A DNA stretch of 63,947 nucleotides from Candidatus Benthortus lauensis (GCA_021650775.1 JAHSRM010000060.1:1-63947), one strand, 5' to 3'; shown: positions 30,940-45,084, numbered from the stretch's first letter. Translations and numbers: made by a program. The notes: generated from the sequence alone by a model not told the origin.

Positions 30940-30951
30940 TTCTAAGCAAAA

Positions 30952-31332
30952 TTAAAAATTGATTGAATATTTATCTAAAATTTCTTTTGCTATTTTACCT
31001 TCTACCTTACTGATAGTATTTCTTTTACTAAGGAAGGCTTGTGCTTGCGGTGAAAGAGATTCGTATCTTAATTGACTCGTTGTAAGCCATCTTACCTTTC
31101 TAAGATGAGCACATTTCTCTTCATCAAAATATGCGTTCCCTATTATCTTTGCTATACCATATACTCTTTTATTAGAATAGACGATAACTAAATCTCCTTT
31201 CTTTATTTCTTTATAAAACATACAGAACTGTTCTGCTACATAAGAGGTCTTCCAACGTTTATTCTGCCAACCATTTCTATAATTAGTTATTCTTCCTTTT
31301 TTTGAGCATATTCTATAAATCTCTTTATCCAT
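30952..31332 (-). CDS. hypothetical protein, probably the 3' part of a disrupted gene for a beta-barrel (PUA/EVE-like) domain protein
   Basis: The GDLVIVYS..RVYGIAKIIGNAYFDEE pattern fits such domains. Upstream out-of-frame segments (to about 31545) encode NRIWKIAPGEYGMYWDTW and ...QEWIKRFIEYAQKK, which join at an A7 run. Confidence 0.35.
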   Translation of the reverse strand: MDKEIYRICSKKGRITNYRNGWQNKRWKTSYVAEQFCMFYKEIKKGDLVIVYSNKRVYGIAKIIGNAYFDEEKCAHLRKVRWLTTSQLRYESLSPQAQAFLSKRNTISKVEGKIAKEILDKYSINF

Positions 31333-31604
31333 TCCTGCTTATCTTGAAGATCGTACCAGCTTTCTTTCTCAATATTCTTTATTCCTTTATTTATCTTAGT
31401 ATCCTACCCCGTTATCATCTACATCTTCCATCCAAGTATCCCAATACATTCCATATTCTCCAGGAGCAATTTTCCAAATTCTATTCTTAATCTTTTTATC
31501 TCTTTTATTAGAAATAGGAAAGTTTGAAATAATTGGAAGCTCATACTTTTTATTCTCTGTTTTTCTTGTTTTGTTTTCTTTTTTAACGCTTGATGCCTAT
31601 CATG

Positions 31605-32132
31605 CTAGAACTTTTTATATTTCTCTAAAATATCGTTAGTCAATTTTTGGGCATTACTACCATTATAACACAAATTAAACCAATTAATAATAGTATCATA
31701 ACTAGTTTCTTTTGGCAATATGTCTATTAAAACATTGGCCTCTAAATTACTCTTAAGAGCTGATTTAGTTAAATTCGATGATCCACATAAAACAGTTATT
31801 CTGTTCTTCTTCTTTGCTATGAAAACCTTTGCATGAAGACCGTCATTACGATAAACTTTGATATTTACTTTCTTAATATTCTTCAAAACTCTTAATGCAT
31901 CTGGCTCTGTAATAGGATTAGTAGTTTGCAATCCGACAATTAGTTTAACTAATGAATTTTTTCTTTTCAAATATCGATTTATCATCTCTTTTAAAAATTC
32001 CGCTCCTTCTCTTTTAACATACGCAATTATTCCATACACTTCTTCAGCATCTTTAAACAATTCATGAAATGCCTCATTAACAGATATAGCATCTTTTTTA
32101 AATTTTGAAGTAAATACCATTTCGTACAGCAA
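31605..32132 (-). CDS. single-HKD phospholipase D-family nuclease (Nuc/NgoFVII/BfiI-like)
   Basis: LHAKVFIAKKKNRITVLCGSSNLTKSAL matches HxK...GSxN. At 175 aa it has one HKD copy, so it would act as a dimer. Confidence 0.75.
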   Translation of the reverse strand: MLYEMVFTSKFKKDAISVNEAFHELFKDAEEVYGIIAYVKREGAEFLKEMINRYLKRKNSLVKLIVGLQTTNPITEPDALRVLKNIKKVNIKVYRNDGLHAKVFIAKKKNRITVLCGSSNLTKSALKSNLEANVLIDILPKETSYDTIINWFNLCYNGSNAQKLTNDILEKYKKF

Positions 32133-32187
32133 TTAAGCTTTTGTAAAATATCTTATAAAAACTTTGCAAAAAGAGTCCAATTTTTAT

Positions 32188-32205
32188 GGTGCGGGGGTGG
32201 GATTT
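32188..32205. repeat. candidate att site (copy of the tRNA-Leu 3' end)
   Basis: GGTGCGGGGGTGGGATTT matches TGTGCGGGGGGTGGGATTT at 44976-44996 (tRNA acceptor/T-arm 3' portion), apart from one G in the G-run. Same orientation. Confidence 0.45.
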
Positions 32206-32270
32206 CCGCCAAAATTTACCAGTATAAGAAGAATAAAATTTATAAATATGTCTGGAGTGGCAGCTACTCG

Positions 32271-33029
32271 TTGCCAATAAATGGTAAAATGCGAGCAGCA
32301 ATTGCAAAGAGATTATATGAACACTTTGCTTGGACAAATAGCTATGGTAAAGAATGGATAACACCGTTACCTTCTAAAATTGAAGAATATTTTGGAGAAC
32401 GATTAATAAGCTATTATCCTTTGCATCCTGAGAAAAAGATTAGAGATTTTGTTTTTGGATGCGAGGAAAAATCTTTACTTGGCTTTTTAGCATATCTCAC
32501 AAAAGATGATCAAAAACTTGAGGAAGAATTAAATGAAGAGCTACAGAAAATTGGGATAAGTCTTTCTCGTGGTCAAGTGATTTCTTCTACAGAGATTGAA
32601 CTTGGATTATTAGAGGAAGAACCTGAGTTACTAGTATATTGGAAAAACTGGGGCTAGGAGAACATGCAAGAATATTAATCAATGGTATATCTGATATGAG
32701 GGAAAAATAAAATATATGAAGCGAACAGTAAAATTTGTTTGTCGTTTGATGGTATACTGAAGAAATTACTTTTAAGGAAAGGGATATCCGTCCCAGATAG
32801 ATGTACGTTAGGTAAGTTAGTTAACCTAGGTCTGGAATCAGGTTTGATAGAACCCGAAATGCGTCCTATCTTTGAAAGTTATGTCTCTCTTAGGAATTTA
32901 CCTCCTCAACATTCCGGCCCCAAGGGAGATATATCAAATGTTTCAAAAACACTAACCTTTGCATTAGCGCACATTAGTAGAGCCCTAATAGGATATTTAA
33001 TTGAACGAATAAAAACAGAATTAGTTTAA
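32271..33029 (+). pseudogene. AbiJ-like protein with C-terminal HEPN domain, split over three reading frames
   Basis: ORFs 32271-32657 and 32739-33029 are bridged by a third-frame piece, ILEKLGLGEHARILINGISDM. The C-terminal piece carries SLRNLPPQH (Rx5H HEPN-type motif). Confidence 0.4.
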
Positions 33030-33149
33030 CAGGCTAGCATTAGCTCATTCAATCTAAGCACTTCTTCTGAGATGTTTTTCTAATCTCCATCTAAGATTCA
33101 ATTTCTTTGAGGAAGAATAAATATAAACGAGACTCTCTGTATTTCCAAT

Positions 33150-34091
33150 AATTTAATTACCTTAGAAGGTATACATCGTGCATGCTGAAGAGATATAATG
33201 TTCCCATAGTTCAAACTATACATAGTCCCCCTCCTATAGATGAAAAATTTTGGCTTGATAATGCAAAGAATTTCGTTGACTTAAATATAGTTCTCAGTAA
33301 TGCGATGAAAAAATGGCTCAAATCAGTAGGTTATCCTGATAATAGAATAATTAAAATACCTGGATTTATAGATTTTGAGTTATTTAATCCAAATATAAAA
33401 ATAAATTTTGAAAAGTTTAACATGATAGGACTGGACATAAATAAAAATAATGATAATTATATTATTTTTTGCCCAGCAAGATTTTCTCCTTCTAAAGGAG
33501 TAGATGTATTACTCAAGGCATTTCGTTTATTGAATATTCAAGATTCAAGTAATGTTAAATTATTGTTAACTGGTAGATTTGCTGGAAGAGAGTTCTTACT
33601 CCCACATTCGCAATATCATATTTCAAAGTATATTGACTATATAAAGCATCTTGTTAAAAAATATAATTTGCAAAAAGTAATTATTAACTACAAAACAGTT
33701 TTTTCCGATAAAGTTAATTTTATTCAGAGAATTCCATATGACATAATGCCTTATCTATATAAAATTTCCGATGTTCTAACGTATCCTTCTCTTCTTAAAC
33801 CACATTTTGAAGCATTTGGATTAGCTTTAATTGAAGCTATGAGAATGGAAATTCCTATTGTTGCAACTAGAAACGGTGGAATGCGTGAGATATTAATAAG
33901 ATGGCATTACCGGTTTACTAGTAAATCCAGGAGATCCTGTTCATTTAGCGAATAAGATCAATCAACTGCTAGAAGATGAATCTTTAAGGAAAAAATTAAT
34001 TTTAAATGCAAAAAGAGAGGTTTTTAAATATGAGGCATCAAGGACTATAAATAACATAATAAACTTATACTATCAACTTAAAGAATTTTAG
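33150..34091 (+). pseudogene. GT4-family glycosyltransferase, N-terminally truncated and frameshifted
   Basis: EAFGLALIEAMRMEIPIVATRNGGMREIL continues in another frame as DGITGLLVNPGDPVHLANKINQLLEDESLRKKL... to the stop at 34089-34091. Most of the N-terminal Rossmann domain is missing. Confidence 0.7.
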
Positions 34092-34687
34092 AGAATTAAC
34101 AACTCATCCATTAAAAATTTCTTCATTGATCTTTTTATTTCCATCTTCTCACTTATCTTTACCTGAAAAACGCGCCAGAACCCGTTACCGATATTTTAAA
34201 TAATATAATATGTTTTAAAAATAGAACATACACTCGAAGCCGATGGATGGACCACGAGTGACTTAAAAATAAATTGACTTTGTTGAAATGGTTATAACTT
34301 AAACCTATAATAAATTTGTTTAACCAAGTTAAAATCAATGATGTCATCATAGGCAGGACAAACAAACTTTCCTATTCTGAAAGGTATATTAATTCTTAAC
34401 GAATGTATCAGCGCTCCACCATAACATTTGAAGCGATTAATGTTAGGTTGGAGTTCCTTTTTGAATTCTTGACTTTTAAGCCGAAAGCCTATAGCTAAGC
34501 TGCTTAACCCGCTTTCTTCAACTCATCTCCCGAAAGGAAGTATGAATATTCTCCAGTTATCTGAAACTCACTCACCAACCACTCATAGAACTGGTCGTCC
34601 TCACTTGACGTGACGACCTGCTCCACAAATTCTTCGATTGGTTTCTCAACTTCAGGCTTAGCCTCCGTTACCGTGAGTTCTTTCTCA

Positions 34688-34810
<123 letters not shown>

Positions 34811-35116
34811 CTACCTGACTTATTAAAAGCAGGAAGCTGATAAAATAGAGTCTCTGACAATAAGATAGGTCAGGACTATGTCTAAAGACCAGCCCGTTTA
34901 CTGTTGCTGGAAGCAAAGTTAAGACGATAGGGGCGTAATCTCGTTTTCAAATAATTTAAAATATAAATGTCATACGAAAAGGTAATGAACAATTATTCTT
35001 CTAATGCTCAATTAGAAGAATTTACAAGAAAACTATCATAGGAAAAGTTTTGGAAATGTTTGGGTTTACTAAGATGTTCTAGGAGATTTTGTATTTGGGG
35101 CGAATTTTTACGTTAC

Positions 35117-35190
35117 GATTACCATAGTATGGTCGTCAAGTATGGATTACCATATGGCAATAACCTATGGTGTTACCATATGGTAACGAT
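35117..35190. repeat. three iteron-like TTACCATA(T)GG repeats, including a perfect 16-bp palindrome
   Basis: GATTACCATAGTATGG (35117-35132), GATTACCATATGG (35145-35157) and the palindrome GTTACCATATGGTAAC (35172-35187). Spacing is 26-28 bp. Confidence 0.6.
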
Positions 35191-35226
35191 ATAGGGCTTT
35201 AGGTGAATAAAAGAATTGCTAAGTAG

Positions 35227-35863
35227 CTACCTCGAGAGTTTTTCACTAATGATTGTTAAGATAATACTAAGTTTGAGGAATTCATGTTTTATTATTGCTG
35301 TGAGCATGGAGAGTATGAAATCTTCCTTTAAAGATCGTTCAATCTCATTTCTATTCTTTATATTTAACAGTGTCTCAGTGAACATCTGTATATACTTTTC
35401 TCCCTCTCTAAAAATGCTTATGGCCTTTTTAGGGTTCTCTCCTACTATAGATGCAATGAATTGTATAGGCGAGACAAACACCAAGTGGTAAAGAAGTTCC
35501 ATCATCTAATCTCACCTTAACACCAAGACCAAATTGAGTGAGTGAACTTACATTCGAGATTTTTAGCTTTAAAATATTTTCAAACTTACTAATAGGAATG
35601 CGATAATACTTCATTAATGTCCCTACAGCAAGTTCTAAGAAAAATCTCTTTCTCTCTACATACCAAGTAAGAAATTGGCTTAACGTAGATCTACGGCGCC
35701 TTAACTCCCTCCTCAATTTATCACGAATTGAAGCCCGAAGCCTGGCTGATATCAAAGGATGCGTGCGTTCATATTTCACTCGAGACGGTGGCTTATGTTT
35801 AGATTTGCGACTCGCAGTTGATCGACGGGAATCTGATTTTGTTTGAAAGACGACATTTTTCAA
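35227..35863 (-). pseudogene. RHH-like DNA-binding protein of unknown function, apparently frameshifted
   Basis: A basic N-terminus with ISARLRASIRDKLRRELRRRRSTLSQFL (RHH-like). ORFs 35429-35863 and 35227-35505 overlap in different frames, as expected for one disrupted gene. Confidence 0.3.
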
Positions 35864-36096
35864 TATATGTCACCTCTATTTGATAAATGATGTCCTTCAA
35901 TAATATGCCAGTGGATTCTATCACCAAAAATTAAGACTCTTACATTCTTTCCTTTAAGCTTCTTCAATTTATTTAGTGTTTTAGGATCTATTTTCACCGT
36001 CAATTTTTCAGTCTTTTTAGCTAACAATAGTATTCCATCACTATCTACCGACAATATAATACCTCTGCCCTCCACAATCTCATTTCTTTCCATCAT
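35860..36096 (-). CDS. hypothetical protein
   Basis: 78-aa ORF. Its stop overlaps the next ORF's TTG start (TTGA). No family recognised. Confidence 0.35.
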   Translation of the reverse strand: MMERNEIVEGRGIILSVDSDGILLLAKKTEKLTVKIDPKTLNKLKKLKGKNVRVLIFGDRIHWHIIEGHHLSNRGDIY

Positions 36097-36144
36097 AAAA
36101 AGATAGAATATTTTACCTATATGAATTCTTTAAGAACAATACAG

Positions 36145-36168
36145 TTCCGGAACTAGTATGTTCCGGAA
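36145..36168. promoter_or_regulatory. twin TTCCGGAA palindromes (candidate operator) in a divergent promoter region
   Basis: GTTCCGGAA at 36144-36152 and 36160-36168, 16 bp centre to centre. They lie between the minus-strand operon (ends at 36096) and the plus-strand gene at 36208. Confidence 0.35.
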
Positions 36169-36207
36169 TAGGTAGTTAACATAAGATATAAAAATAAGAA
36201 CAAATTC

Positions 36208-36624
36208 ATGAAAAATATGCAAAAGCCTAAGTATGTCAGGACAAATATTTTAAGATCGTTGTACGGATATCCTGAAGGACGCAGCTATTCTTCAGTAATT
36301 AGCGAAGTGATAGAAAGATCTAATGTAAGTGAACGGTATATAAGGAAAAGCAAGTCAACATTAATTAGATATGATTATATCGAAGAGTTTTCCAAGAAAA
36401 GAAGAAAGTATCTCAAATTGAAAATGCTTGGTACAGAATTTACTGAATCGACAATGAATCTTGATATAGACCAAGAAATTCATCCTTCGGAGATTAATCT
36501 ATCTAAAGAGGAGATAATCAGAGCTATTAAGGCCGGTCTTCTGAAGATTTCAAAGGATTTGAAGTTGCTGCTTGGTACAATCAATTTTGGAAGGAGACGA
36601 AGAATTTTAAGAAGAACCTCATAA
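36208..36624 (+). CDS. hypothetical protein, possible winged-helix DNA-binding protein
   Basis: ILRSLYGYPEGRSYSSVISEVIERSNVSERYIRKSKSTLIRYDYIE resembles a wHTH. Low certainty. Confidence 0.4.
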   Translation: MKNMQKPKYVRTNILRSLYGYPEGRSYSSVISEVIERSNVSERYIRKSKSTLIRYDYIEEFSKKRRKYLKLKMLGTEFTESTMNLDIDQEIHPSEINLSKEEIIRAIKAGLLKISKDLKLLLGTINFGRRRRILRRTS

Positions 36625-36805
36625 ACCTCTTAATAAATTAAAACATGTATGTGACATTTAGAATACTATACCTGTTCTCGTCACAACAAGGAACATATAA
36701 AGGAGGTTGAATTATGATACATGGGACTCTTCACGAAGTAGCATCAGCATTTAGGATAGTAAGTATAGAGAAAATGAAGGTGAAATTCTTGTGAGGGAAT
36801 GATAT

Positions 36806-37015
36806 TCATCTTGAATTTAGTAGTCTTCTTTTGAATGATGTTATTGTTATTCCTGCGGGTTCTCCCTTACTGTCCAAGTCTACTATGATGCCTTCCTCTA
36901 TCTCTACTCCCTCGGCTGCTTCCCGGTCTCCGAAGTGTATGTATAGTGTGTCTGCTTCCTCGTCGTAGTGGATGTACGCGCCGCTTATCCTAAGCTTTCT
37001 CAGGGCTTCCTCCAA
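36806..37015 (-). CDS. DUF2283-family protein (putative antitoxin)
   Basis: YIHYDEEADTLYIHFGD...GIIVDLDSKGEPAGITI is the characteristic DUF2283 pattern. Confidence 0.7.
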   Translation of the reverse strand: MEEALRKLRISGAYIHYDEEADTLYIHFGDREAAEGVEIEEGIIVDLDSKGEPAGITITSFKRRLLNSR

Positions 37016-37338
37016 ACCACCCTCCTCCTCTTCTCCAACTTTTCTACGTCTTTTGTGGGGTACGCGGTGATTATAAATCCTTCCCTGTTAAGCGGCCTGT
37101 ACACGACAACGAGGTATGCTCCTCCGAGAAGGTCTTTAAACCATCGTATGGTCAGCAGCTCTCCGAGGCGGCCCTCCAAGACCATCTCAGGCTCCTCCAA
37201 AGTTTCCACTATCTTAGGACGATGCTCATGAAGCCAGGGTCTCTTGGCGAGGATATGTCTCCAGCTGCCTAGACCAAGCCTGATACGCCTCCCACGGAAA
37301 TCATAGGCCTCGAGAACTACACCCGACCCATTGCTCAA
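37000..37338 (-). CDS. DUF4258-like putative toxin
   Basis: WRHILAKRPWLHEHRPKIVETLEEPEMV...YLVVVY...GFIITAYP. Overlaps the DUF2283 gene by 16 nt. The only plausible start is a TTG at 37338, which overlaps the recombinase remnant's stop. The upstream part of the track ORF is an alternate frame of that remnant. Confidence 0.4.
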   Translation of the reverse strand: MSNGSGVVLEAYDFRGRRIRLGLGSWRHILAKRPWLHEHRPKIVETLEEPEMVLEGRLGELLTIRWFKDLLGGAYLVVVYRPLNREGFIITAYPTKDVEKLEKRRRVVWRKP

Positions 37339-38100
37339 ACTATCCCCAGCTTCGGGATGTATGCTTGATAAGCTTTCCTCAGCTCCTCCGGATCTATGTG
37401 GTCGTAGATGTCTATCGCCTCCCCCCTCCTGCCCCCTCTTAGTTCTTTTATGAACTCCCGTGGCATTCCATTCCTCCTGAGCCAGGTTGTGAACCAATGC
37501 CGGAGACCATGTGGCTAATCCTTAATCCAAGTTTTGACGAGTGCTTCACAATAACATTAATATCATGTTTCTGTTTATTCGCTTCTTGCTCTCATAATTT
37601 GTGAACAGCGCTTTAGTTCGCGGTCTCAGTTGCTCTCTGATCTAAGCACCTTTCAAGAACTAACGCAGCTTCATCGTCAAAAACCCTCGATTACTTCTCT
37701 TTTGCGTCTTCTCAAGATATTTTGCAGCTCTCCCAATCAATATTATCTATATCAAGTCTAATGAGCTTGCTTCTTCTAATTTCCGTTTTCCCAGCAAGAC
37801 TATTATCACCCATTCTCTAGGATCCAACGTCGAGCTAACCATCCTAGCAGGCTCTTCAATCTACTCTTCTTCGCTCTTACATCTCCTAGATAGCACGTTG
37901 TTCATTGGAACTTTCTCCTCATAGGCTAGGTAATCGTAAAACGTGGACAGCGCCGAAAATAATTCTCAAGAGTCTTATGCCTCACCTTCTTCTCAGAAGC
38001 TCTATCAGCTCATGATTAAACCTCATAACATCCTCGAAGCGAGGTTCTGGAAATCGCTGAGCCCTATACCTCTGAAGAAGCTTTTCCCAAGACTATCGAC
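37335..38100 (-). pseudogene. tyrosine recombinase (XerC/D-like integrase) remnant A
   Basis: Multiple stops and frameshifts. Recognisable pieces are LENYFSALSTFYDYLAYEEKVP, IIVLLGKTEIRRSKLIRLDIDNIDWE and an in-frame C-terminus HGLRHWFTTWLRRNGMPREFIKELRGGRRGEAIDIYDH. Clear nucleotide similarity to 43475-44406. Confidence 0.7.
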
Positions 38101-38102
38101 TA

Positions 38103-41100
38103 TTAACGTGATTTTAATATTCTTTCTTTAGCTAAATGTTCAATTTCTTGACTATCTATACTTCCATCAGGTCTCTCTTTGGATACTATTAATTGTTTAT
38201 AATAGCCGTTTTCTTTATACCATCGCTCTTTTCTTTTCCAGTCTTTAATATAATCTGGATCATTTAACATGCCAAGATGTTCCCAGTAAAACGTTTTTCC
38301 TTGATACTTTATAGTAAAATCTGGTAACCGATAATCCAACGGATCATTTTTAGAATAAAGTGGTTTCTCATATTCATAACTTATGCCTAAATCAGCTAAA
38401 ATGTTTGCTATAATTACCTCCGATTTAGATCTAACCAATTCTCCTTTCCTTGTTACATGTTTTAATTGTTCTGGTTTGAACGGCTCTTTACAAATTTTCA
38501 ATTTAAATAGATTTGTATTTCTCTTAAGAGTTTGAGAATATTGTAGATTTCTATATGTCAGTAAAGGAAGTATATCTTTTTCAATAAGTAGAATTATTTT
38601 TCTTCTGAACCTAGTTAATCCCGTATATAGTAGTTCTGTTGATAGCGTTGATGTTTTCTGTGGTACGATAAAAATTACTACATCAAAATCACTTCCTTGT
38701 GATTTATGGACTGTAATAGCATATGCTAATTCGAGGTTTTCGTCTATCACATTTTTCCCATAATATCTAAATCTTATGTTCGGATGCGTTGAAAATTCTA
38801 CTTCTAAGAATTTTTTCTCTTTATTAAGTTTAACTACTCTGCCAATTTCTCCATTCGCTACATAGTCAGAATATTGTCCATTTCCATTTATTATCTGAAC
38901 CTGTTTTTCTTTTCCTTTGGTTCTCTTGTTAATAATTTGTATAACTTTATCAGTATACATTATTTGTTGTTCTCCTAAATATTTTCTCTGCATAAATAAT
39001 CCTCTATTATACTTTTCTTGAATAATACGGTTTATTTCTGTTGTTCCAAAGAAATGTAATCTTGTAGGTGAAATAATCTGCCAATTTTCAGGATTCTTAA
39101 GTGATTCATTAAATCTTTGATATAAGGGTTCACCGTTTTTCTTTTCATATAAGATGTTCATTATATTCTTTTCTAATATTTCATAAAGTTCTTTTTCATC
39201 ATTCCAAAAATATACTTCTAACTCTTTAGATGTAGACCTTTTTGCAATTTTGGAAAGTATCTCATCATCTCCAGGAGAACCCTTTTCCCTTAAGAAGAAA
39301 TCAGCTAATTTTAGAGCATCGGAACCCTCATGACGAACACGCTGGGTTAAGCAAATAACATGTTCTTTCCCATTTTCTTCTAGATAATCTATAATATCTA
39401 TAAAGGGTCTGCCAGGCCCTATCGGAGGTAGTTGATTAGGATCTCCTACAAGGACCAGTCGTTTAATATAATTAAAGTCAAGAGCTCTAAATAATGTGGC
39501 TAGAAGATCTATGGGAATCATGGAAGCCTCATCTATAATTACATTTTCATATACTCCTTTACTTCCGCCCTCATTCTTTAGAGAGTATGTTTCTTCTCTT
39601 ATCCATCCTTGTTTCATTAAGAATTCATGAATAGTTAATGCTTTTCTTCCTGTAATAGATTGTAATCTGACTCTTGCTTTTCCAGTAGGAGCTAACAGTA
39701 ATAATGAAGTTTTCCCCTCTAATTCTTCAAGCCCCTTTATGAATGGTTTGAGAACAGTGGTCTTTCCAGTACCTGCTCTTCCCATTATTACAGATAAACG
39801 ATTTGAGAAAAGCGCTCTTAATGCTTCTATTTTTTCTTGACGCGCTTTATCTTCTAATGATTTATTTTCCAGCCTCTTAACATTCCTCAGTTCATTTTCT
39901 ATTAATTTTTTAAGTGTATGGTCAGAAGGTTCATCGTATTTCCCTTTAAGAAGATTCTTAATACGACCTTCAACCTCTTTTTCCATATCATAAAGAGATT
40001 TTAATGCGATAAACTTTGGATTATTTCTAGGGATAAAAACCAATTGCTCTTCATAAAATTTACGATTATGTAAAATAATATCTAAATCAAGCTCAAATAA
40101 TCGATTTTTAGGTAATCTTCTTTTTATTCTTTTAAAAGCTTCATAAACTGATATACAAGTATGTCCTTCTGTTGATGCTTCTTTTAATATTTGAACTAAT
40201 AACGCTCTTACTCTGCGCTCATCATCTTTGTCTATATACTCAAAATCAATTTTTTTAAAATTAGAAGCCAGTTTTTCATTTAATATCATACCCCTATCAA
40301 TGGTCTCGAAGTCTGTAGGAGGGGAATCACTATCTCCATCATCTAACTCTGAAATTATGTAGGGGTTTTCTATTAATTCCCTTTCTGTAGCATCTATGAA
40401 TGCTTCTTTACGTTTTTCTCGGTTAGACACCCTCTTTATTTGTTCAGGCGACAATGCAAAGCGGCATAATATCTTTAGTAGTTCTTTTCTTATTTTTGGA
40501 AGCTTCTTCCATTTTCTCATAGCTTTCTTATAATTTTCATAATACTTTTTTGGGATTCTTTTTCTCTTTCCATCAAGGATTGAGAAAACATAATGATGAA
40601 TATTCATTCCTTTAGATTCTAAGCTAGTTAGTTCCATACGATGATAAATAACGCCATTCTCAAAGCCTAAGGCTTCTAAAACACTACCAACTCCAGGGAA
40701 AACGCCACGATTCTTCCATACTTCCTCCAATACTTTATTTAACCACTTCAATCTATATTGCCACGATTTGCCATAAGGCTCTTTTATCTTATTATCTTTT
40801 ACTATAGTTTCTATAGACTGAATTGCTCTTTCAATTATTCCAACAGCAGTATCATCTGTCACATGTTCTGCAACATACGAAAACTGCCTTTTAGCTGAAG
40901 CTGGAATATAACAAATTATTTCTGATACATCATATCCATTTTTAATGTATTCTTGATATGGTAAACGAACTCCCTGTTCAGGAAAGCTATGAGTTATACA
41001 CCTAGACCATACAGGATAATTTTCTTTATATCCGGATTTCTTCCCAAAAAATTTTTGTCTACCTATATGAGATACGCGGCTTATTCCAATTAATATTCTC

Positions 41101-41576
41101 TTTTTTCTATCTTCTTCTAAAGGATTAGCGTAATTAACATAAAAGAATATGAGTGACTTGCTTGGAACTATCTCCTGCCAAAAATTTTTTAGTTTCTCTA
41201 ATTGAATTTTTGGATCACTTATCCAAGTTTCTCCTTGGTCCTCGCTAAGCATCCTCTCATATGGAGCTGTACAAAATGAATAAGGAGGGAGTTCTTCTTC
41301 AACTGGTGGTAAATTCCTCCATTCCAAAGGATCTTTATGAAGTATTGTAAAACCTTTAGAAGAGAATGTTGCTATATCTCTTGAACAAGGAGGAAGCTCA
41401 TTGAGTTTAAGCTTACTTACATGTTTTTTGGAATTCGTACATTCTACATCCTCATTCCTTTCTTCCCTTATATGTTCATGCATTACACAAGAAACATTTA
41501 ACTTAGGATTATCACAGATGCATCCGTCCCATCCCCGGTCATGCCATACAAGACGCGCTGATAGGTGGAGCGGCAT
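38103..41576 (-). CDS. 1157-aa fusion protein: unassigned Cys/His-rich N-terminal domain, RecD-like SF1B helicase and C-terminal PD-(D/E)xK-like nuclease
   Basis: Helicase motifs: GRAGTGKTT (aa 599-607, about nt 39756-39782), VIIDEASM, LVLVGDPNQLPP, AYAITVHKSQGSDFD and LLYTGLTRFRRK. C-terminal nuclease-like segment: RSKSEVIIANIL..YEYE..RLPDF...YWEHLG. N-terminus: LVWHDRGWDGCICDNPKLNVSCVMHEH. Confidence 0.85.
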   Translation of the reverse strand: MPLHLSARLVWHDRGWDGCICDNPKLNVSCVMHEHIREERNEDVECTNSKKHVSKLKLNELPPCSRDIATFSSKGFTILHKDPLEWRNLPPVEEELPPYSFCTAPYERMLSEDQGETWISDPKIQLEKLKNFWQEIVPSKSLIFFYVNYANPLEEDRKKRILIGISRVSHIGRQKFFGKKSGYKENYPVWSRCITHSFPEQGVRLPYQEYIKNGYDVSEIICYIPASAKRQFSYVAEHVTDDTAVGIIERAIQSIETIVKDNKIKEPYGKSWQYRLKWLNKVLEEVWKNRGVFPGVGSVLEALGFENGVIYHRMELTSLESKGMNIHHYVFSILDGKRKRIPKKYYENYKKAMRKWKKLPKIRKELLKILCRFALSPEQIKRVSNREKRKEAFIDATERELIENPYIISELDDGDSDSPPTDFETIDRGMILNEKLASNFKKIDFEYIDKDDERRVRALLVQILKEASTEGHTCISVYEAFKRIKRRLPKNRLFELDLDIILHNRKFYEEQLVFIPRNNPKFIALKSLYDMEKEVEGRIKNLLKGKYDEPSDHTLKKLIENELRNVKRLENKSLEDKARQEKIEALRALFSNRLSVIMGRAGTGKTTVLKPFIKGLEELEGKTSLLLLAPTGKARVRLQSITGRKALTIHEFLMKQGWIREETYSLKNEGGSKGVYENVIIDEASMIPIDLLATLFRALDFNYIKRLVLVGDPNQLPPIGPGRPFIDIIDYLEENGKEHVICLTQRVRHEGSDALKLADFFLREKGSPGDDEILSKIAKRSTSKELEVYFWNDEKELYEILEKNIMNILYEKKNGEPLYQRFNESLKNPENWQIISPTRLHFFGTTEINRIIQEKYNRGLFMQRKYLGEQQIMYTDKVIQIINKRTKGKEKQVQIINGNGQYSDYVANGEIGRVVKLNKEKKFLEVEFSTHPNIRFRYYGKNVIDENLELAYAITVHKSQGSDFDVVIFIVPQKTSTLSTELLYTGLTRFRRKIILLIEKDILPLLTYRNLQYSQTLKRNTNLFKLKICKEPFKPEQLKHVTRKGELVRSKSEVIIANILADLGISYEYEKPLYSKNDPLDYRLPDFTIKYQGKTFYWEHLGMLNDPDYIKDWKRKERWYKENGYYKQLIVSKERPDGSIDSQEIEHLAKERILKSR

Positions 41577-41587
41577 TATATTGTTTT

Positions 41588-41593
41588 ACCTCC
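41588..41593 (-). promoter_or_regulatory. Shine-Dalgarno-like GGAGGT upstream of the 1157-aa gene
   Basis: The minus strand reads TTAGGAGGTAAAACAATATA-ATG. An A/T-rich TTAAAAAC lies about 25 nt further upstream. Confidence 0.35.
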
Positions 41594-41813
41594 TAATAGT
41601 TTTTAAGGCTTTCTTTGTACAACCGCTTCTAAGAAAGATAAACACATGAAATAAGCTGAGCTACGGATACATGAAACATTCCATAAGGTGGCATTAGCGT
41701 TTAGGATAGTGGATATAAAGAAAATCTTAAAGTTCTATGAACATAAGAAGCAGGTAAAAGGTGTGGATGTTGTCAGACATCAACTTTATTAATCATTAGT
41801 TGGGTTCCTTATT

Positions 41814-42002
41814 TTGATGGGTGAGGTTTCGGAGATACTTGGTGAGATTCGGGAGGAGCTGAGGGAGCTTAGACTACTCTATAAAGAGCTTGTTGAGAGG
41901 CTTATTCCCGTCGAGGAGCCCGAACCAGATGAAAAGAAAGCAATAAAGGAGGAAGACGAAATCGTCGGCGAAGAAGAGTTGTTCAGGGTTTTGGGCGACT
42001 AG
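41814..42002 (+). CDS. putative antitoxin (acidic small protein) of the RelE module
   Basis: 62-aa acidic ORF ending 3 nt before the RelE-family gene. Confidence 0.5.
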   Translation: MMGEVSEILGEIREELRELRLLYKELVERLIPVEEPEPDEKKAIKEEDEIVGEEELFRVLGD

Positions 42003-42005
42003 GAT

Positions 42006-42266
42006 TTGTTTAGGCTTGAGATCAATCGTAAGGCCCTGAAAGCCCTCGAGAAGCTGGATGAGAAGAGGAGGAAGAGGTTTACCGATGTCTTCTCTATATT
42101 GAAGGAGGATCCCGTCCCCTTCAGGAAGCTTAATGTGGCTAAACTTCGTGGATATGAGAGCACCTATCGTATAAGGATCGGCGACCTAAGACTCGTATAT
42201 ACTGTTTATTGGGCTGAGAGAAGAATACTAATACACTTCATAGGAACAAGAAGAAAAGCGTATTGA
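42006..42266 (+). CDS. relE: type II toxin, RelE/ParE family
   Basis: KLRGYESTYRIRIGDLRLVYTVYWAERRILIHFIGTRRKAY, a typical RelE C-terminal core. Confidence 0.85.
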   Translation: MFRLEINRKALKALEKLDEKRRKRFTDVFSILKEDPVPFRKLNVAKLRGYESTYRIRIGDLRLVYTVYWAERRILIHFIGTRRKAY

Positions 42267-42316
42267 TTTTATGACAATAATGGTATAGCTATAAATTGTT
42301 ATGCTTGCCAAAAATA

Positions 42317-42916
42317 TTATTCTTCACCCATTGTTGCGCTAACCCGACATATATACTCCATCTTTTTCCTGAACCTTTCACGTAGATCACTATTTGTTGG
42401 ACATCTAAGACTAGATACATAATTTTCAAATTCTTTAACTAGCTGACTATGAAACAATCTACGGTTTATAATGAGCCCTTTTCCGTCTTCAGTAAAGCTG
42501 ACAAGTGGGGTTCCTTCCCGTATAATTACACGAGAACTTCCTTTAACCTCAGCTTGATGCAGAATACCGCATCGGATTTGGTCATAAAAAATTTTGGCTT
42601 TCTTTTCATCGAAAAATTCTTTAAAAGAGCTCTCCGTTAAGAAGCGGACAAAATATTCTTTTGATCTTCCGTGCGGAGTTTGTTCTACTCCTTCTCGAAA
42701 CTGTTGAAGTGTCTCAATAAGCAAACAGTCAAGTGCTAAGACTGCAAAGCCAGAATATGTCTGATTTTGAATGCGGTCTATAATATCTAAGAAGCGCCCT
42801 CTAATACGATCCTCGAAAATATCTATTGCCTTCTGCCACCCCTCTTCTTTTGAAAAGTCTATTCTTCGCCAATCCTCCGTTGTATAATGAGGTGAAATAC
42901 GCATCACATTTATCAC
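42317..42916 (-). CDS. hypothetical protein with a possible HEPN-type Rx4H motif
   Basis: Predicted mostly helical. FYDQIRCGILHQAE places R115-x4-H120 (nt 42557-42574). No other family motif recognised. Confidence 0.35.
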   Translation of the reverse strand: MINVMRISPHYTTEDWRRIDFSKEEGWQKAIDIFEDRIRGRFLDIIDRIQNQTYSGFAVLALDCLLIETLQQFREGVEQTPHGRSKEYFVRFLTESSFKEFFDEKKAKIFYDQIRCGILHQAEVKGSSRVIIREGTPLVSFTEDGKGLIINRRLFHSQLVKEFENYVSSLRCPTNSDLRERFRKKMEYICRVSATMGEE

Positions 42917-42977
42917 ATCTTTAGGATATAAATATTATTAAGCTAATAAGCTTTTCTATAGAAGTGGAGCTGTGGGT

Positions 42978-43445
42978 ATGGGCCGGATTTGGTATTTTTC
43001 CTATGGTAGGAATATGAATTCTAGTAAATTGTATGAAAGAATAAAAAGAAAACCTTTCAGTATATATAGAGGAAGATTGCTGAATTATAAACTCATCTTT
43101 GGCAAGGTTCCGGGTCCTAAACTAGGTACAGGATACGCAACTATTGTTCCAAGTCCAAAAGAATCGGTAGAAGGAGTATTATACTTACTTAACGGTCAGG
43201 ACTTAGAAGTATTGGATAAATATGAAGGCGTGGAAACGGGTAACTACATCAGATGTAAAGTAGAGGTTCTAAATTTAGATTTAAACATTATTGTAAAAGC
43301 TTACACATACATAGCTGTTAAAGTGGACGAAAATCTGAAACCTCCAAGAGAATATTTAGCCGAGTTAATAGAGTCTTCTAAGAGGATGTCTCTAACTAAT
43401 GACTGGATAATTAAACTAGAAAATCTAATGAAAGATTCCTTATAA
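42978..43445 (+). CDS. gamma-glutamylcyclotransferase (GGCT/AIG2-like) family protein
   Basis: The YFSYGRNMNSSKL N-terminal motif (YGSNL-type), VEGVLYLL and LDKYEGVETGNYIR (catalytic Glu context). Confidence 0.75.
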   Translation: MGRIWYFSYGRNMNSSKLYERIKRKPFSIYRGRLLNYKLIFGKVPGPKLGTGYATIVPSPKESVEGVLYLLNGQDLEVLDKYEGVETGNYIRCKVEVLNLDLNIIVKAYTYIAVKVDENLKPPREYLAELIESSKRMSLTNDWIIKLENLMKDSL

Positions 43446-43474
43446 AATCCTTTTCTCCACCAGTCTGGAGAATA

Positions 43475-44406
43475 TTATTCTATTCTTAGTTTTGGTATTG
43501 ATGCTAAGTATGCTTTTCTTAGCTCTTCTTCGTCTATGTGGTCGTAGATGCCTACCGCCTCTTTTTTCGGCCTCCTCTTAGCTCTTTAATGAATTCTCGG
43601 GGCATCTTATTTCTCCTAAGCCATGTAGTGAACCAGTGCCTCAGATCGTGGGGGACTTATTCTCAGACCAAGCCTGGATGAGTGCTTGACAACCACATTG
43701 AAGATTGTGTTTCTGTCTATTCGCTTCTTGCTTGCATAGTTTATGAAAAGGGCTTTGGTTTCTGGTTTGAGTATTGCTCTTGCTTTGAGCCATCTTCTGA
43801 GAACTATTGCTGTCTCGTCGTCGAAGAATACTATTCGGTTGCTCCGCTTCGGCTTCTTCAGGATGATCCTATATTTTCCCAGTCGATGTCATCTACGTCG
43901 AGTCTTATCAGCTCACCCCTCCTTATCCCTGTCTTTGCCAATAGGACTATTATCGCCCTATCCCACGGCTCTAGAACCGAGTTAACTATCCTGCTAAGCT
44001 CCTCAACGCTTAGAAGCCTCCTAACATGCTGCTCCTCATCACCCTTATACCTCCTGAGATAACGTTTCCTAAATGGTAAGATATAATTTGCTGGAACTAT
44101 CCCCTCATAGGCAAGATAATCATAGAATGTTGATAGTGCTGAGAAATAATTCTCTAAGGTCTTGTGACTAATCCTCCTCTTAAATCTAAGATATCTCAAG
44201 AAATTTCTAAGAACTTCCTTATCTACATTAAGCAGGCTTAATCCATCGGCTTTCAGGTATTCTATAAAGATTCTAATCGCCGATATATACTTCCTTATGC
44301 TCTCCCCGTTCATCTCCTTGAGTACGCAGTCCTTCCTGAAGTCTTGTATAATCCTCTCAGAATCAATCTTCCTGATCCTCAGCTGCTTTAGCCTCTCCAT
44401 CTCCAA
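43475..44406 (-). pseudogene. tyrosine recombinase (XerC/D-like integrase) B, at least three frameshifts
   Basis: The N-terminal 182 aa are intact (SAM-like domain, AKTGIRRGEL). The rest continues in other frames as RIILKKPKRSNRIVFFDDETAIVLRRWL..., then HDLRHWFTTWLRRNKMPREFIKELRGGRKK, then EAVGIYDHIDEEELRKAY... to the stop at 43475-43477. Confidence 0.75.
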
Positions 44407-44926
44407 CCCTTCCTAGGAAACTCGATCAGTCCGTAGTCCTCGAGAATCTCGAATCTCGAGCTGCCTTGAGATCGCCTTCACGTATTCCGTCTCGGATGGA
44501 TCGACACCAAGCCTGTCGAGGATTTCCTCTTCGCTGAACGATTCACCTGTCTTCAGAAGTTCTATTAGTTCTCTATCGAATCTTCGAATGCCCTCAAAGT
44601 GTGGCTCTAGAAATGGTTGAGCTCTGTATCTTCTGAGTTCGCGTTCAAGATTCTCGACAAGTTTTTCTTAGCATCCTGTTTTCTTCACGAAGTCTTTTAA
44701 CCTCATCATCGAATTCTTTCAACTTCTTAATCAATTCAAGTCTACTCTCGAATCTGTGGTTTTCGCTCTTCCTGATATAATCCTCAACAATCTCAAAGAC
44801 AAACTTCGATAATGATTTCTTCGCTAACGCCGCATGCCTCCTCCATTCCTCAACAAACTCCTCACTCGGAAGATAAACGTAGACGGTTCTCTCCTTGATG
44901 GTCTCAGTCTTCCTCCGCCCAACCAT
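44388..44926 (-). pseudogene. RHH / coiled-coil / wHTH regulator, frameshifted
   Basis: VYVYLPSEEFVEEWRRHAALAKKSLSKFV (RHH). The frame breaks at an A5 run (...NRMLRK|LVENLERELRRY...) and again at a 7-bp tandem duplication, GAATCTC x2 (44444-44457), before ...LEILEDYGLIEFPRKGW. Confidence 0.5.
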
Positions 44927-44970
44927 CCCAACGGTATCAAAAGGTATTACCCTTTACATAGTTTACCGGT

Positions 44971-44975
44971 AAAAA
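44971..44975 (-). terminator. T5 tract immediately 3' of tRNA-Leu
   Basis: The minus strand reads ...GCA-CA-TTTTT-ACC directly after the discriminator base. Oligo-T is the usual archaeal termination signal. Confidence 0.3.
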
Positions 44976-44977
44976 TG

Positions 44978-45084
44978 TGCGGGGGGTGGGATTTGAACCC
45001 ACGAACCCCTATGGGACAGGGGTTCTCATCCCTTTTTTTGGGATCCTGAGCCCTGCGCCTTTGGCCAGGCTTGGCTACCCCCGC
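44978..45084 (-). tRNA. tRNA-Leu(CAG) with a 22-nt intron
   Basis: Hand-folded. Acceptor stem GCGGGGG/CCCCCGC, A73, anticodon stem CAGGG/CCCTG, loop CUCAGG, long variable arm UCCCAUAGGGGUUC, and T-arm GUGGG-UUCAAAU-CCCAC. The intron ATCCCAAAAAAAGGGATGAGAA (45023-45044) follows position 37. Confidence 0.85.

Follow-up and report, generated by a model that had tools for sequence, protein, structure and literature searches.

Phage defense by one polypeptide that joins a helicase to a nuclease is represented by Nhi, Hhe, and Hna. A nuclease, a helicase/NTPase, and a PUA-superfamily-like reader are likewise combined in a single protein in SauUSI (PMC6765204), and the modification-dependent enzyme BrxU is embedded in BREX systems (bioRxiv 10.1101/2024.01.29.577857). 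Embedding was also the basis on which Payne et al. (2024, bioRxiv 10.1101/2024.01.29.577857) nominated 145 “guilt-by-embedding” phage defense candidates (PDCs), which were derived from genes lying inside BREX, DISARM, type I restriction-modification (RM), and Hma loci. Here, we analyze a gene of the PDC-S68 family on a 63,947-nt stretch of DNA from Candidatus Benthortus lauensis (GCA_021650775.1, JAHSRM010000060.1:1-63947; this whole stretch is called the window in the following). The gene is an uninterrupted open reading frame (ORF) of 1157 amino acids (aa) at positions 38103..41576 on the minus strand, and we consider it probable that it encodes an autonomous, single-polypeptide, ATP-driven helicase-nuclease effector of defense against invading DNA of viruses or plasmids, which is possibly modification-sensing.

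By its sequence, the window protein is a member of PDC-S68, a family that is already catalogued with a predicted function. The best PDC-S68 hidden Markov model (HMM) of PADLOC-DB v2.0.0, PDLC05065, aligned aa 4–1152 with positions 7–1218 of its 1221-position profile (E = 0, 1084.8 bits), and two further PDC-S68 HMMs matched full-length as well (E = 4e-284 and 4e-197). All other PADLOC families covered the helicase core or P-loop only (17 families match at E ≤ 1): the typeIV_RecD and RecD_like models were confined to aa 385–1003, and Mokosh MkoA, PDC-M16A, and other named helicase-nuclease systems in PADLOC (e.g., NERD+UvrD) aligned with short P-loop segments. Nhi, Hhe, and Hna were absent from these 17 families; they share the concept of a single-protein helicase-nuclease with PDC-S68 but differ from it in helicase clade and domain order and have no equivalent of its N-terminal module. 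Since full-length models of PDC-S68 exist, the architecture does not count as undescribed; a preliminary description of this DNA had not recognized it as a described one. We regard the gene as a sound lead and not as a new kind of system; the architecture is known from PADLOC, and what we add is an archaeal-type stand-alone copy, a domain map, and a testable hypothesis on the sensor. This copy has the entire family architecture of N-terminal module, helix-hairpin-helix (HhH) linker, RecD-like motor, and C-terminal nuclease, and its homologues show the kind of genomic embedding by which the PDCs were defined. At the level of the family there is no difference from PDC-S68; the copy itself is distinct in being of an archaeal type, without the insertion of about 20 aa that most bacterial members carry, and in standing alone within an integrated element, so that the embedding on which the PDC nomination was based is seen for the family but not for the window copy.

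The intact ORF of three parts that the preliminary description had proposed was borne out, and each of the modules could be located. At its center lies a superfamily 1B (SF1B) motor (aa ~576–1004; 38565..39851, minus strand) which, as judged from profiles and motifs, is a complete RecD2-like helicase. Pfam placed AAA_19/AAA_30 at aa 584–751 and UvrD_C_2 at aa 950–996, all above cutoffs, together with a sub-threshold match of SH3_13 at aa 848–928; the Pfam scan of the window protein returned no match before aa 440 or after aa 1004. In the family motif alignment of 24 sequences (the window protein and homologues), Walker A (G599-A-G-T-G-K605-T606, with the K605 codon at nt 39762-39764), Walker B (D682-E683), and the motifs G711-D-x-N-Q-L-P-P, H957-K-x-Q-G-S, and Y984-T...T988-R989 were invariant, and all motor motifs quoted in the preliminary description were present. 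The top sequence match in the PDB was Deinococcus radiodurans RecD2 (3e1s, E = 8e-22), and RecD was matched too. Scores with the NCBIfam models were 279.4 bits over aa 448–1004 for the RecD2 equivalog TIGR01448, below its curated cutoff of 500, and 169 bits for RecD against a cutoff of 310.

The motor is preceded by a helical, HhH-type linker (aa ~291–575; 39852..40706, minus strand) that resembles the N-terminal region of RecD2, as had been suspected before. HHH_RecD2 matched aa 440–474 below the Pfam threshold (E = 3e-4) and scored above cutoff in the relative P0149 (31.6 bits), and a PADLOC model described as “RecD/Tra ATPase fused to N-terminal HHH domain” covers aa 385–772. With RecD2 (3e1s) and the RecD subunit of RecBCD, the window protein shares the SF1B motor with all of its motifs, the HhH-type N-terminal region, and an SH3-like insert. 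It differs from them by its 290-aa N-terminal module, its fused nuclease, and its scores below the equivalog cutoffs, and PDC-S68 is mobile and patchy in its distribution, whereas RecD2 is core. Helicases of the RecD family translocate 5'->3', and we presume from this family knowledge that the motor in the window does the same.

For the C-terminal ~118 aa (aa ~1040–1157; 38106..38459, minus strand), modeling indicates a PD-(D/E)xK fold that is closest to phage T7 endonuclease I and the archaeal nuclease Bax1. An AlphaFold2 (AF2) model of aa 1000–1157 built from 60 sequences showed a core with pLDDT >90 from aa ~1040 onward and elements in the order helix-strand-strand-strand-helix, and its top Foldseek matches in the PDB were all PD-(D/E)xK nucleases (prob up to 1.0). 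Bax1 was the best of these (E = 1.7e-3, prob 1.0); further matches were R2 retrotransposon endonuclease, MGME1, DrdV, Hjc, Can2, XisH, and TnsA. When a profile made from 23 diverse C-termini of the family (25–67% identity) was compared with PDB sequences, T7 endonuclease I came out best (E = 0.028), and the motifs RSxSE, PDF, and WEHxG stood in register with E20, D55, and VETKG (E65, K67), respectively, of this enzyme, residues that have catalytic roles there. The acidic triad of E1053, D1086, and E1099, which answers to the acidic residues that the superfamily has on alpha1, beta2, and beta3, is kept across the family, and H1100 beside the glutamate is invariant. In the sequence E1099-H1100-L1101-G1102, the position of the canonical PD-(D/E)xK lysine (K67 of T7 endonuclease I) is occupied by L1101, and we infer that K/R1051 on helix alpha1 could be a stand-in for it. 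Candidate catalytic residues are E1053, D1086, E1099, H1100, and maybe K1051.

The domain thus has the fold of T7 endonuclease I and its E...PD...E-x-x-G pattern in register with E20, D55, and E65, but carries a leucine in place of the catalytic lysine and an invariant histidine next to the glutamate. Bax1, the partner of the XPB helicase, is similar as a nuclease of the structure-specific type that works with a helicase; its cooperation is in trans with an SF2 motor, whereas in PDC-S68 the nuclease and an SF1B motor are joined in cis. Both matches are marginal (E = 0.002–0.03). The preliminary description had likened the last ~115 aa to PD-(D/E)xK nucleases of the Vsr/DUF559 type, and the AF2 model and Foldseek agree with the fold but Pfam does not agree with the narrower label: neither family matched the window protein at E ≤ 10, and among the 23 family members Vsr (PF03852) was found in one (E = 0.04) and DUF559 in none, with DUF7200 (7/23) and EcoRII-C (3/23) as other scattered sub-threshold matches. 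The nuclease is retained in 60 of 66 long family representatives, the other six ending after the helicase (P0163, P0191, P0193, P0197, P0204, P0206), and P0155 has an additional C-terminal Schlafen/AlbA_2 domain. Since such variation is common in defense families, we counted this variable C-terminus in favor of a role in defense.

The N-terminal module (aa 1–290; 40707..41576, minus strand) had no match in Pfam, NCBIfam, or PDB sequences. This is in line with the preliminary description, which had left the region without a family, though at a length of ~230 aa where the conserved module is in fact ~290 aa long. Across 27 diverse N-terminal modules of the family, Pfam reported no EVE, ASCH, SRA, or YTH family at E ≤ 10, and the module profile had zero matches among PDB sequences. 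The AF2 model of aa 1–300 (pLDDT 91.4, pTM 0.90) is beta-rich with a long C-terminal helical hairpin. In the alignment of the 27 modules (27–60% identity), the residues W11, H12, W16, G18, C21, P24, N27, C30, C64, Y146, P152, G164, and P206 are invariant and H4, E45, Y207, and Y234 nearly so. This pattern suggests a metal knuckle of three cysteines and a histidine (H12, C21, C30, C64) together with a conserved aromatic surface, to which W11, W16, Y146, Y207, and Y234 would contribute, and speaks for such an arrangement instead of a hydrolase active site.

Structure comparison gave a weak hint of modified-base readers. Foldseek ranked the EVE/PUA-like protein PH1033 (1wmm/2hd9) first in the PDB, with a weak match (E = 0.014–0.026, prob 0.54–0.69, TMt 0.36–0.40), and the SRA-like domain of LpnPI 11th; in the viral library, an EVE protein of Bodo saltans virus ranked first, again weakly (E = 0.029, prob 0.47). 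With two libraries in agreement and each match below normal significance, the module is suggestive of a divergent PUA/EVE-like reader, which we treat as a lead and not as a finding. If this candidate assignment holds, then PDC-S68 would combine a nuclease, a helicase/NTPase, and a PUA-superfamily-like reader in one protein as SauUSI does, an ATP-dependent restriction enzyme of type IV (modification-dependent). It is not a member of the SauUSI, BrxU, or GmrSD families, from which it differs by a PD-(D/E)xK nuclease instead of PLD or HNH, an SF1B instead of an SF2 motor, and a reversed domain order. When the module profile was used to look for other domain partners, it retrieved only the family with the RecD-like motor and short unannotated pieces. 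Several proteins of 350–500 aa on long contigs (P0297-P0304) comprise the module only and could be split genes or stand-alone sensors.

PDC-S68 is a widespread family. A database of 5.8 billion proteins contained >120 full-length clusters at 45–60% identity from sources such as Bathyarchaeia, Heimdallarchaeaceae, archaeon HR01, Methanolobus/Methanosalsum, Nannocystaceae, and Rubinisphaera, and the window protein aligned at 100% coverage with >100 homologue clusters. The N-terminal 290 aa as query retrieved 892 clusters at 50% identity, 414 of them at E ≤ 1e-10, with proteins mostly 1150–1300 aa long. Scanning one genome per species yielded 80 near-full-length loci (27–47% identity) in Proteobacteria, Acidobacteriota, Planctomycetota, Bacillota, Bacteroidota, Actinomycetota, Chloroflexota, Spirochaetes, and Nitrospirota as well as in Methanosarcinaceae, Nitrosopumilus, and other groups. 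Mesophilic homologues include the Bacillus cereus plasmid protein WP_074585669.1 and the Variovorax/Azospirillum copies (L088, L014). With this spread over most bacterial phyla and several archaeal lineages, the architecture is neither rare nor specific to archaea. Full-length copies were also found on about 22 IMG/VR viral contigs (of 2.9 million) and on 24 plasmids (of 72,556). Conservation of all three modules at full length across the family was counted as selection on the whole protein.

To see where these genes reside, we called ORFs in 88 homologue loci, clustered them, and annotated recurrent clusters among the neighbors within 10 kb. One or more restriction-type neighbors (HsdR/M/S, BrxC/PglX/PglZ, or genes for a PLD-SNF2 helicase, methyltransferase, or ATPase) were present in 45 of the 88 loci and in 34 of the 60 that have at least 5 kb on both flanks. 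They nearly always lie on the same strand as the homologue, often less than 50 bp away, and in at least 11 loci genes of the system stand on both sides of it. The most common neighbors were a PLD-SNF2 helicase (20 loci), HsdS (14), HsdM (13), and HsdR (12), before a Sacsin-like ATPase (7), N6_N4 methyltransferases (6 and 5), BrxF (5), BrxC (5), YgjP peptidase (5), and UvrD (4). The sets of PLD helicase, methyltransferase, and ATPase match the BREX-related systems that have been dissected as MANTIS (bioRxiv 10.64898/2026.09.23.753747). No partner gene was conserved across the 88 loci, the top neighbor family reaching 20, and this lack of a universal neighbor fits a cassette of one self-contained gene whose preferred insertion sites are restriction-type loci.

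Eight hand-picked homologue contexts were examined singly. Three of these copies are held by BREX-type operons in which BrxC is followed by the homologue and this by PglX-like methyltransferases, an SNF2 helicase, and PglZ. A Pycsar system adjoins one of the three, and another shares its slot with a Gabija-like pair of OLD and UvrD. In the latter case, a BREX-type locus of Methanolobus (L005, 16438–20114), the Gabija-like OLD-type TOPRIM ATPase and UvrD helicase lie in the operon of the homologue, which suggests that the interval from the methyltransferase to the SNF2 helicase is a common hotspot of insertion. Another copy overlaps the end of a BrxE/DUF4268 gene. In the remaining contexts, two DDE transposase genes bracket the homologue like a composite transposon (L004, 8731–14984), a DDE transposase fragment lies beside one copy, the homologue and two small ORFs have split a housekeeping gene by insertion between the halves of Ppx/GppA (L006, 8034–13985), and one copy is surrounded by housekeeping genes. 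According to RefSeq annotation, a copy on a Bacillus cereus megaplasmid is located between an integrase and DISARM DrmA/DUF1998, and a copy on a Hymenobacter plasmid has an SNF2 protein on one side and a DNA methyltransferase on the other.

Taken together, the earlier proposal of a single-gene helicase-nuclease defense system is supported at the level of a candidate by this context survey, in which about half of the loci carry genes of RM, BREX, or DISARM type. The location of homologues in restriction-type loci strengthens the defense reading, and it is further supported by mobility and patchiness as seen in transposase flanks, the split Ppx/GppA gene, copies on plasmids and viral contigs, and the low-GC, tRNA-adjacent island of the window with its dead integrases, ParE toxin, and PLD nuclease (see below). 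A tRNA-targeted integrative element, by now decayed, would have carried the gene there. In the mechanism that we propose, the N-terminal module would be the specificity or sensor domain, a beta-rich fold with a stabilizing metal knuckle and a conserved aromatic surface that would recognize a feature of foreign nucleic acid, with a modified base as our leading guess. The HhH linker and the RecD2-like SF1B motor would then engage the DNA and translocate 5'->3' on one strand, driven by ATP via K605, and the domain similar to T7 endonuclease I and Bax1 (E1053, D1086, E1099-H1100) may finally cut the unwound or branched DNA and destroy the invader. The domain map supplies residues that can be mutated in each part: K605 in the motor, D1086/E1099/H1100 in the nuclease, and C21/C30/C64 as well as W11/W16/Y146 in the N-terminal module.

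Several points weigh against this reading. The 145 PDCs are called untested by their authors (bioRxiv 10.1101/2024.01.29.577857), most PDCs were still unvalidated in a 2026 survey of archaea (PMC12988326), and the name PDC-S68 occurs in no paper of the literature that we searched. A cold-seep study saw protection by 4 of 8 tested candidates, a set to which PDC-S68 did not belong. About half of the homologue loci are without a recognizable defense neighbor, and the window copy, which no RM- or BREX-like system surrounds, could have been carried along in a decaying island without being active. Because L1101 takes the place of the canonical lysine, nuclease activity is not guaranteed. Finally, the EVE/PUA likeness behind the idea of a sensor is weak overall (E = 0.014–0.03, prob 0.47–0.69, TM 0.2–0.4) and comes without support by sequence profiles.

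This weak likeness leaves some room for a different kind of defense, in which the N-terminal module senses a phage protein, a DNA end, or a replication intermediate but not a modified base. Once activated, the nuclease would degrade DNA indiscriminately, so that the infected cell is killed or arrested. Some single-protein helicase-nuclease defenses (Hna, Nhi) are reported to act abortively or to target replication intermediates. This precedent speaks for such an abortive infection (Abi) mechanism, as does the structure specificity for branched DNA of T7 endonuclease I, Bax1, and Hjc, to which the nuclease is most closely related, but we hold the mechanism to be unlikely; embedding in restriction-type instead of Abi- or toxin-antitoxin-type loci fits direct targeting of DNA slightly better. 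The same embedding could also mean that the protein assists methylation-based systems (type I RM, BREX-related, or DISARM/Hma) as an accessory component, for example, as a helicase-nuclease that processes DNA marked by these systems or modulates them, with the window copy as an orphan. Its tight, same-strand, and often overlapping placement inside such operons at many loci speaks for such a role, and BREX-related systems do use dedicated helicase-nuclease effectors such as MANTIS MtsD (bioRxiv 10.64898/2026.09.23.753747). However, three or more unrelated kinds of system serve as hosts, each with an effector of its own, no neighbor family is found in more than 20 of the 88 loci, and many copies stand alone, as in the window, where transposases bracket the homologue, where it splits a gene, and where housekeeping genes surround it. 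The Gabija-like OLD+UvrD pair in the same slot is moreover the signature of an insertion hotspot and not of a partnership, and we therefore judge an accessory role to be distinctly unlikely.

The mobility of the family can be read in another way as well, namely as a selfish function in the replication or processing of mobile elements, the exclusion of their competitors, or counter-defense. Copies on plasmids, viral contigs, and integrated elements would agree with it, and RecD/TraA-type helicases are known to serve conjugative elements, to whose TraA/TraI helicase parts NCBIfam gave weak matches. Yet Pfam and NCBIfam detected no relaxase, primase, or replication-initiator domain in the protein, copies on viral contigs and plasmids are, at the counts given above, rare compared with chromosomal ones, and the recurrent-neighbor analysis revealed no link to transfer genes; to exclude competing elements would, in practice, amount to defense. 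We consider a selfish function to be quite improbable. Homologues are annotated as “exodeoxyribonuclease V alpha subunit” or “RecD-like helicase”, and the motor is indeed RecD2-like, which could indicate a housekeeping helicase-nuclease of DNA repair or recombination in the manner of RecD2 or AddAB. Against this stand scores far below the equivalog cutoffs (RecD2 279 vs 500, RecD 169 vs 310), the patchy taxonomic distribution, a GC content 25 points under that of the host, a mobile island here and transposase or restriction-gene flanks elsewhere, and the additional N- and C-terminal modules that RecD2 lacks. Such a housekeeping role is extremely improbable, and the RecD2 version of it was rejected on cutoffs, composition, and context.

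Returning to direct defense against invading DNA, a more specific version of it would make PDC-S68 a new class of ATP-dependent, modification-sensing restriction enzymes similar to type IV systems. The divergent, zinc-knuckle EVE/PUA-like reader would then detect hypermodified phage DNA and license the motor and the lysine-less nuclease. This version, which takes SauUSI and BrxU as analogies and to which we assign rather low odds, would explain the frequent insertion into systems that attack only unmodified DNA (type I RM, BREX-related, and DISARM), and PDC-S68 would, if it is true, be a backstop to the host system as BrxU is. The family is of interest beyond this point because it is mobile, recurs in restriction-type loci, and is large (its bacterial and archaeal clusters at 50% identity number in the hundreds), and because it carries a conserved 290-aa module without an assigned family. 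If it is a defense system, then a RecD-type single-protein helicase-nuclease would join the known repertoire, and for archaea, in which few systems have been validated (PMC12988326), it would be a further candidate.

The gene in the window is part of a sharply delimited, low-GC island (30950..44977) that was recognized by its composition profile and gene content as horizontally acquired. GC content is ~32–41% over ~30.9–45.0 kb compared with 55–60% in both flanks, and that of the helicase-nuclease gene itself is 32.4%. The island abuts a tRNA gene of 107 nt (44978..45084, minus strand; Rfam RF00005, 45.9 bits; missed by ARAGORN) with a long variable arm and an anticodon loop that is enlarged by a 25-nt insertion; this gene is the likely integration target. 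No att repeats were found between the island borders when exact words of ≥12 nt and 18-mers of the tRNA 3' end with ≤2 mismatches were searched. Adjoining the tRNA gene is integrase remnant 1 (43400..44406, minus strand), a frameshifted tyrosine recombinase: Pfam located Phage_int_SAM_4 and the start of Phage_integrase on ORF 43858–44406, and the HDLRHWFTT motif and the C-terminal part fall in other frames. A paralogous, equally frameshifted integrase remnant 2 (37300..38100, minus strand) lies directly downstream of the helicase-nuclease gene and was recognized by three-frame translation, with KTLENYF...STFYDYLAYEE and HGLRHWFTTWLRRNGMPREFIKELRGG in different frames. Two paralogous, shattered integrases give the island the look of two decayed integrated elements in tandem, of which the tRNA-proximal one appears to carry the helicase-nuclease as cargo while remnant 2 would mark the junction with the second. 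The preliminary description was right that the neighboring mobility genes are broken by frameshifts and the helicase-nuclease gene is not. It is the only large gene of the island that is still intact, and its survival among wrecks fits either ongoing selection or recent arrival.

Among the smaller genes of the island, a ParE-type toxin of 86 aa and a preceding small ORF, possibly its antitoxin, are located immediately upstream of the helicase-nuclease gene (41814–42266, plus strand). Near integrase remnant 2, we noted a DUF2283 ORF (36806–37015, minus strand) and, overlapping with it, a 165-aa ORF (37000–37497) that starts as an out-of-frame read of this remnant. At the far end of the island, an ORF of 175 aa (31605–32132, minus strand) belongs to the PLD-family nucleases (Pfam PLDc_2 and RE_NgoFVII; PADLOC DrmC, 2e-12), also matches the PADLOC model of type IV methyl-directed restriction endonucleases, and may be a defense remnant or a small nuclease. 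Close to it, an ORF of 126 aa (30952–31332, minus strand) partially matches PADLOC PDC-S02 (1e-8) and, weakly, Pfam EVE (6e-4), and it resembles the truncated remainder of a further candidate defense gene; a homologue search with this EVE-like ORF returned the query only, with the precomputed Pfam entry PF28530.1. A GT4 glycosyltransferase ORF (33182–33955, plus strand) matches only the end of the Glyco_transf_4 domain and is hence truncated at its N-terminus, and a gene of the gamma-glutamyl cyclotransferase/AIG2-like (GGACT-like) type lies within the island at 42972–43445 on the plus strand.

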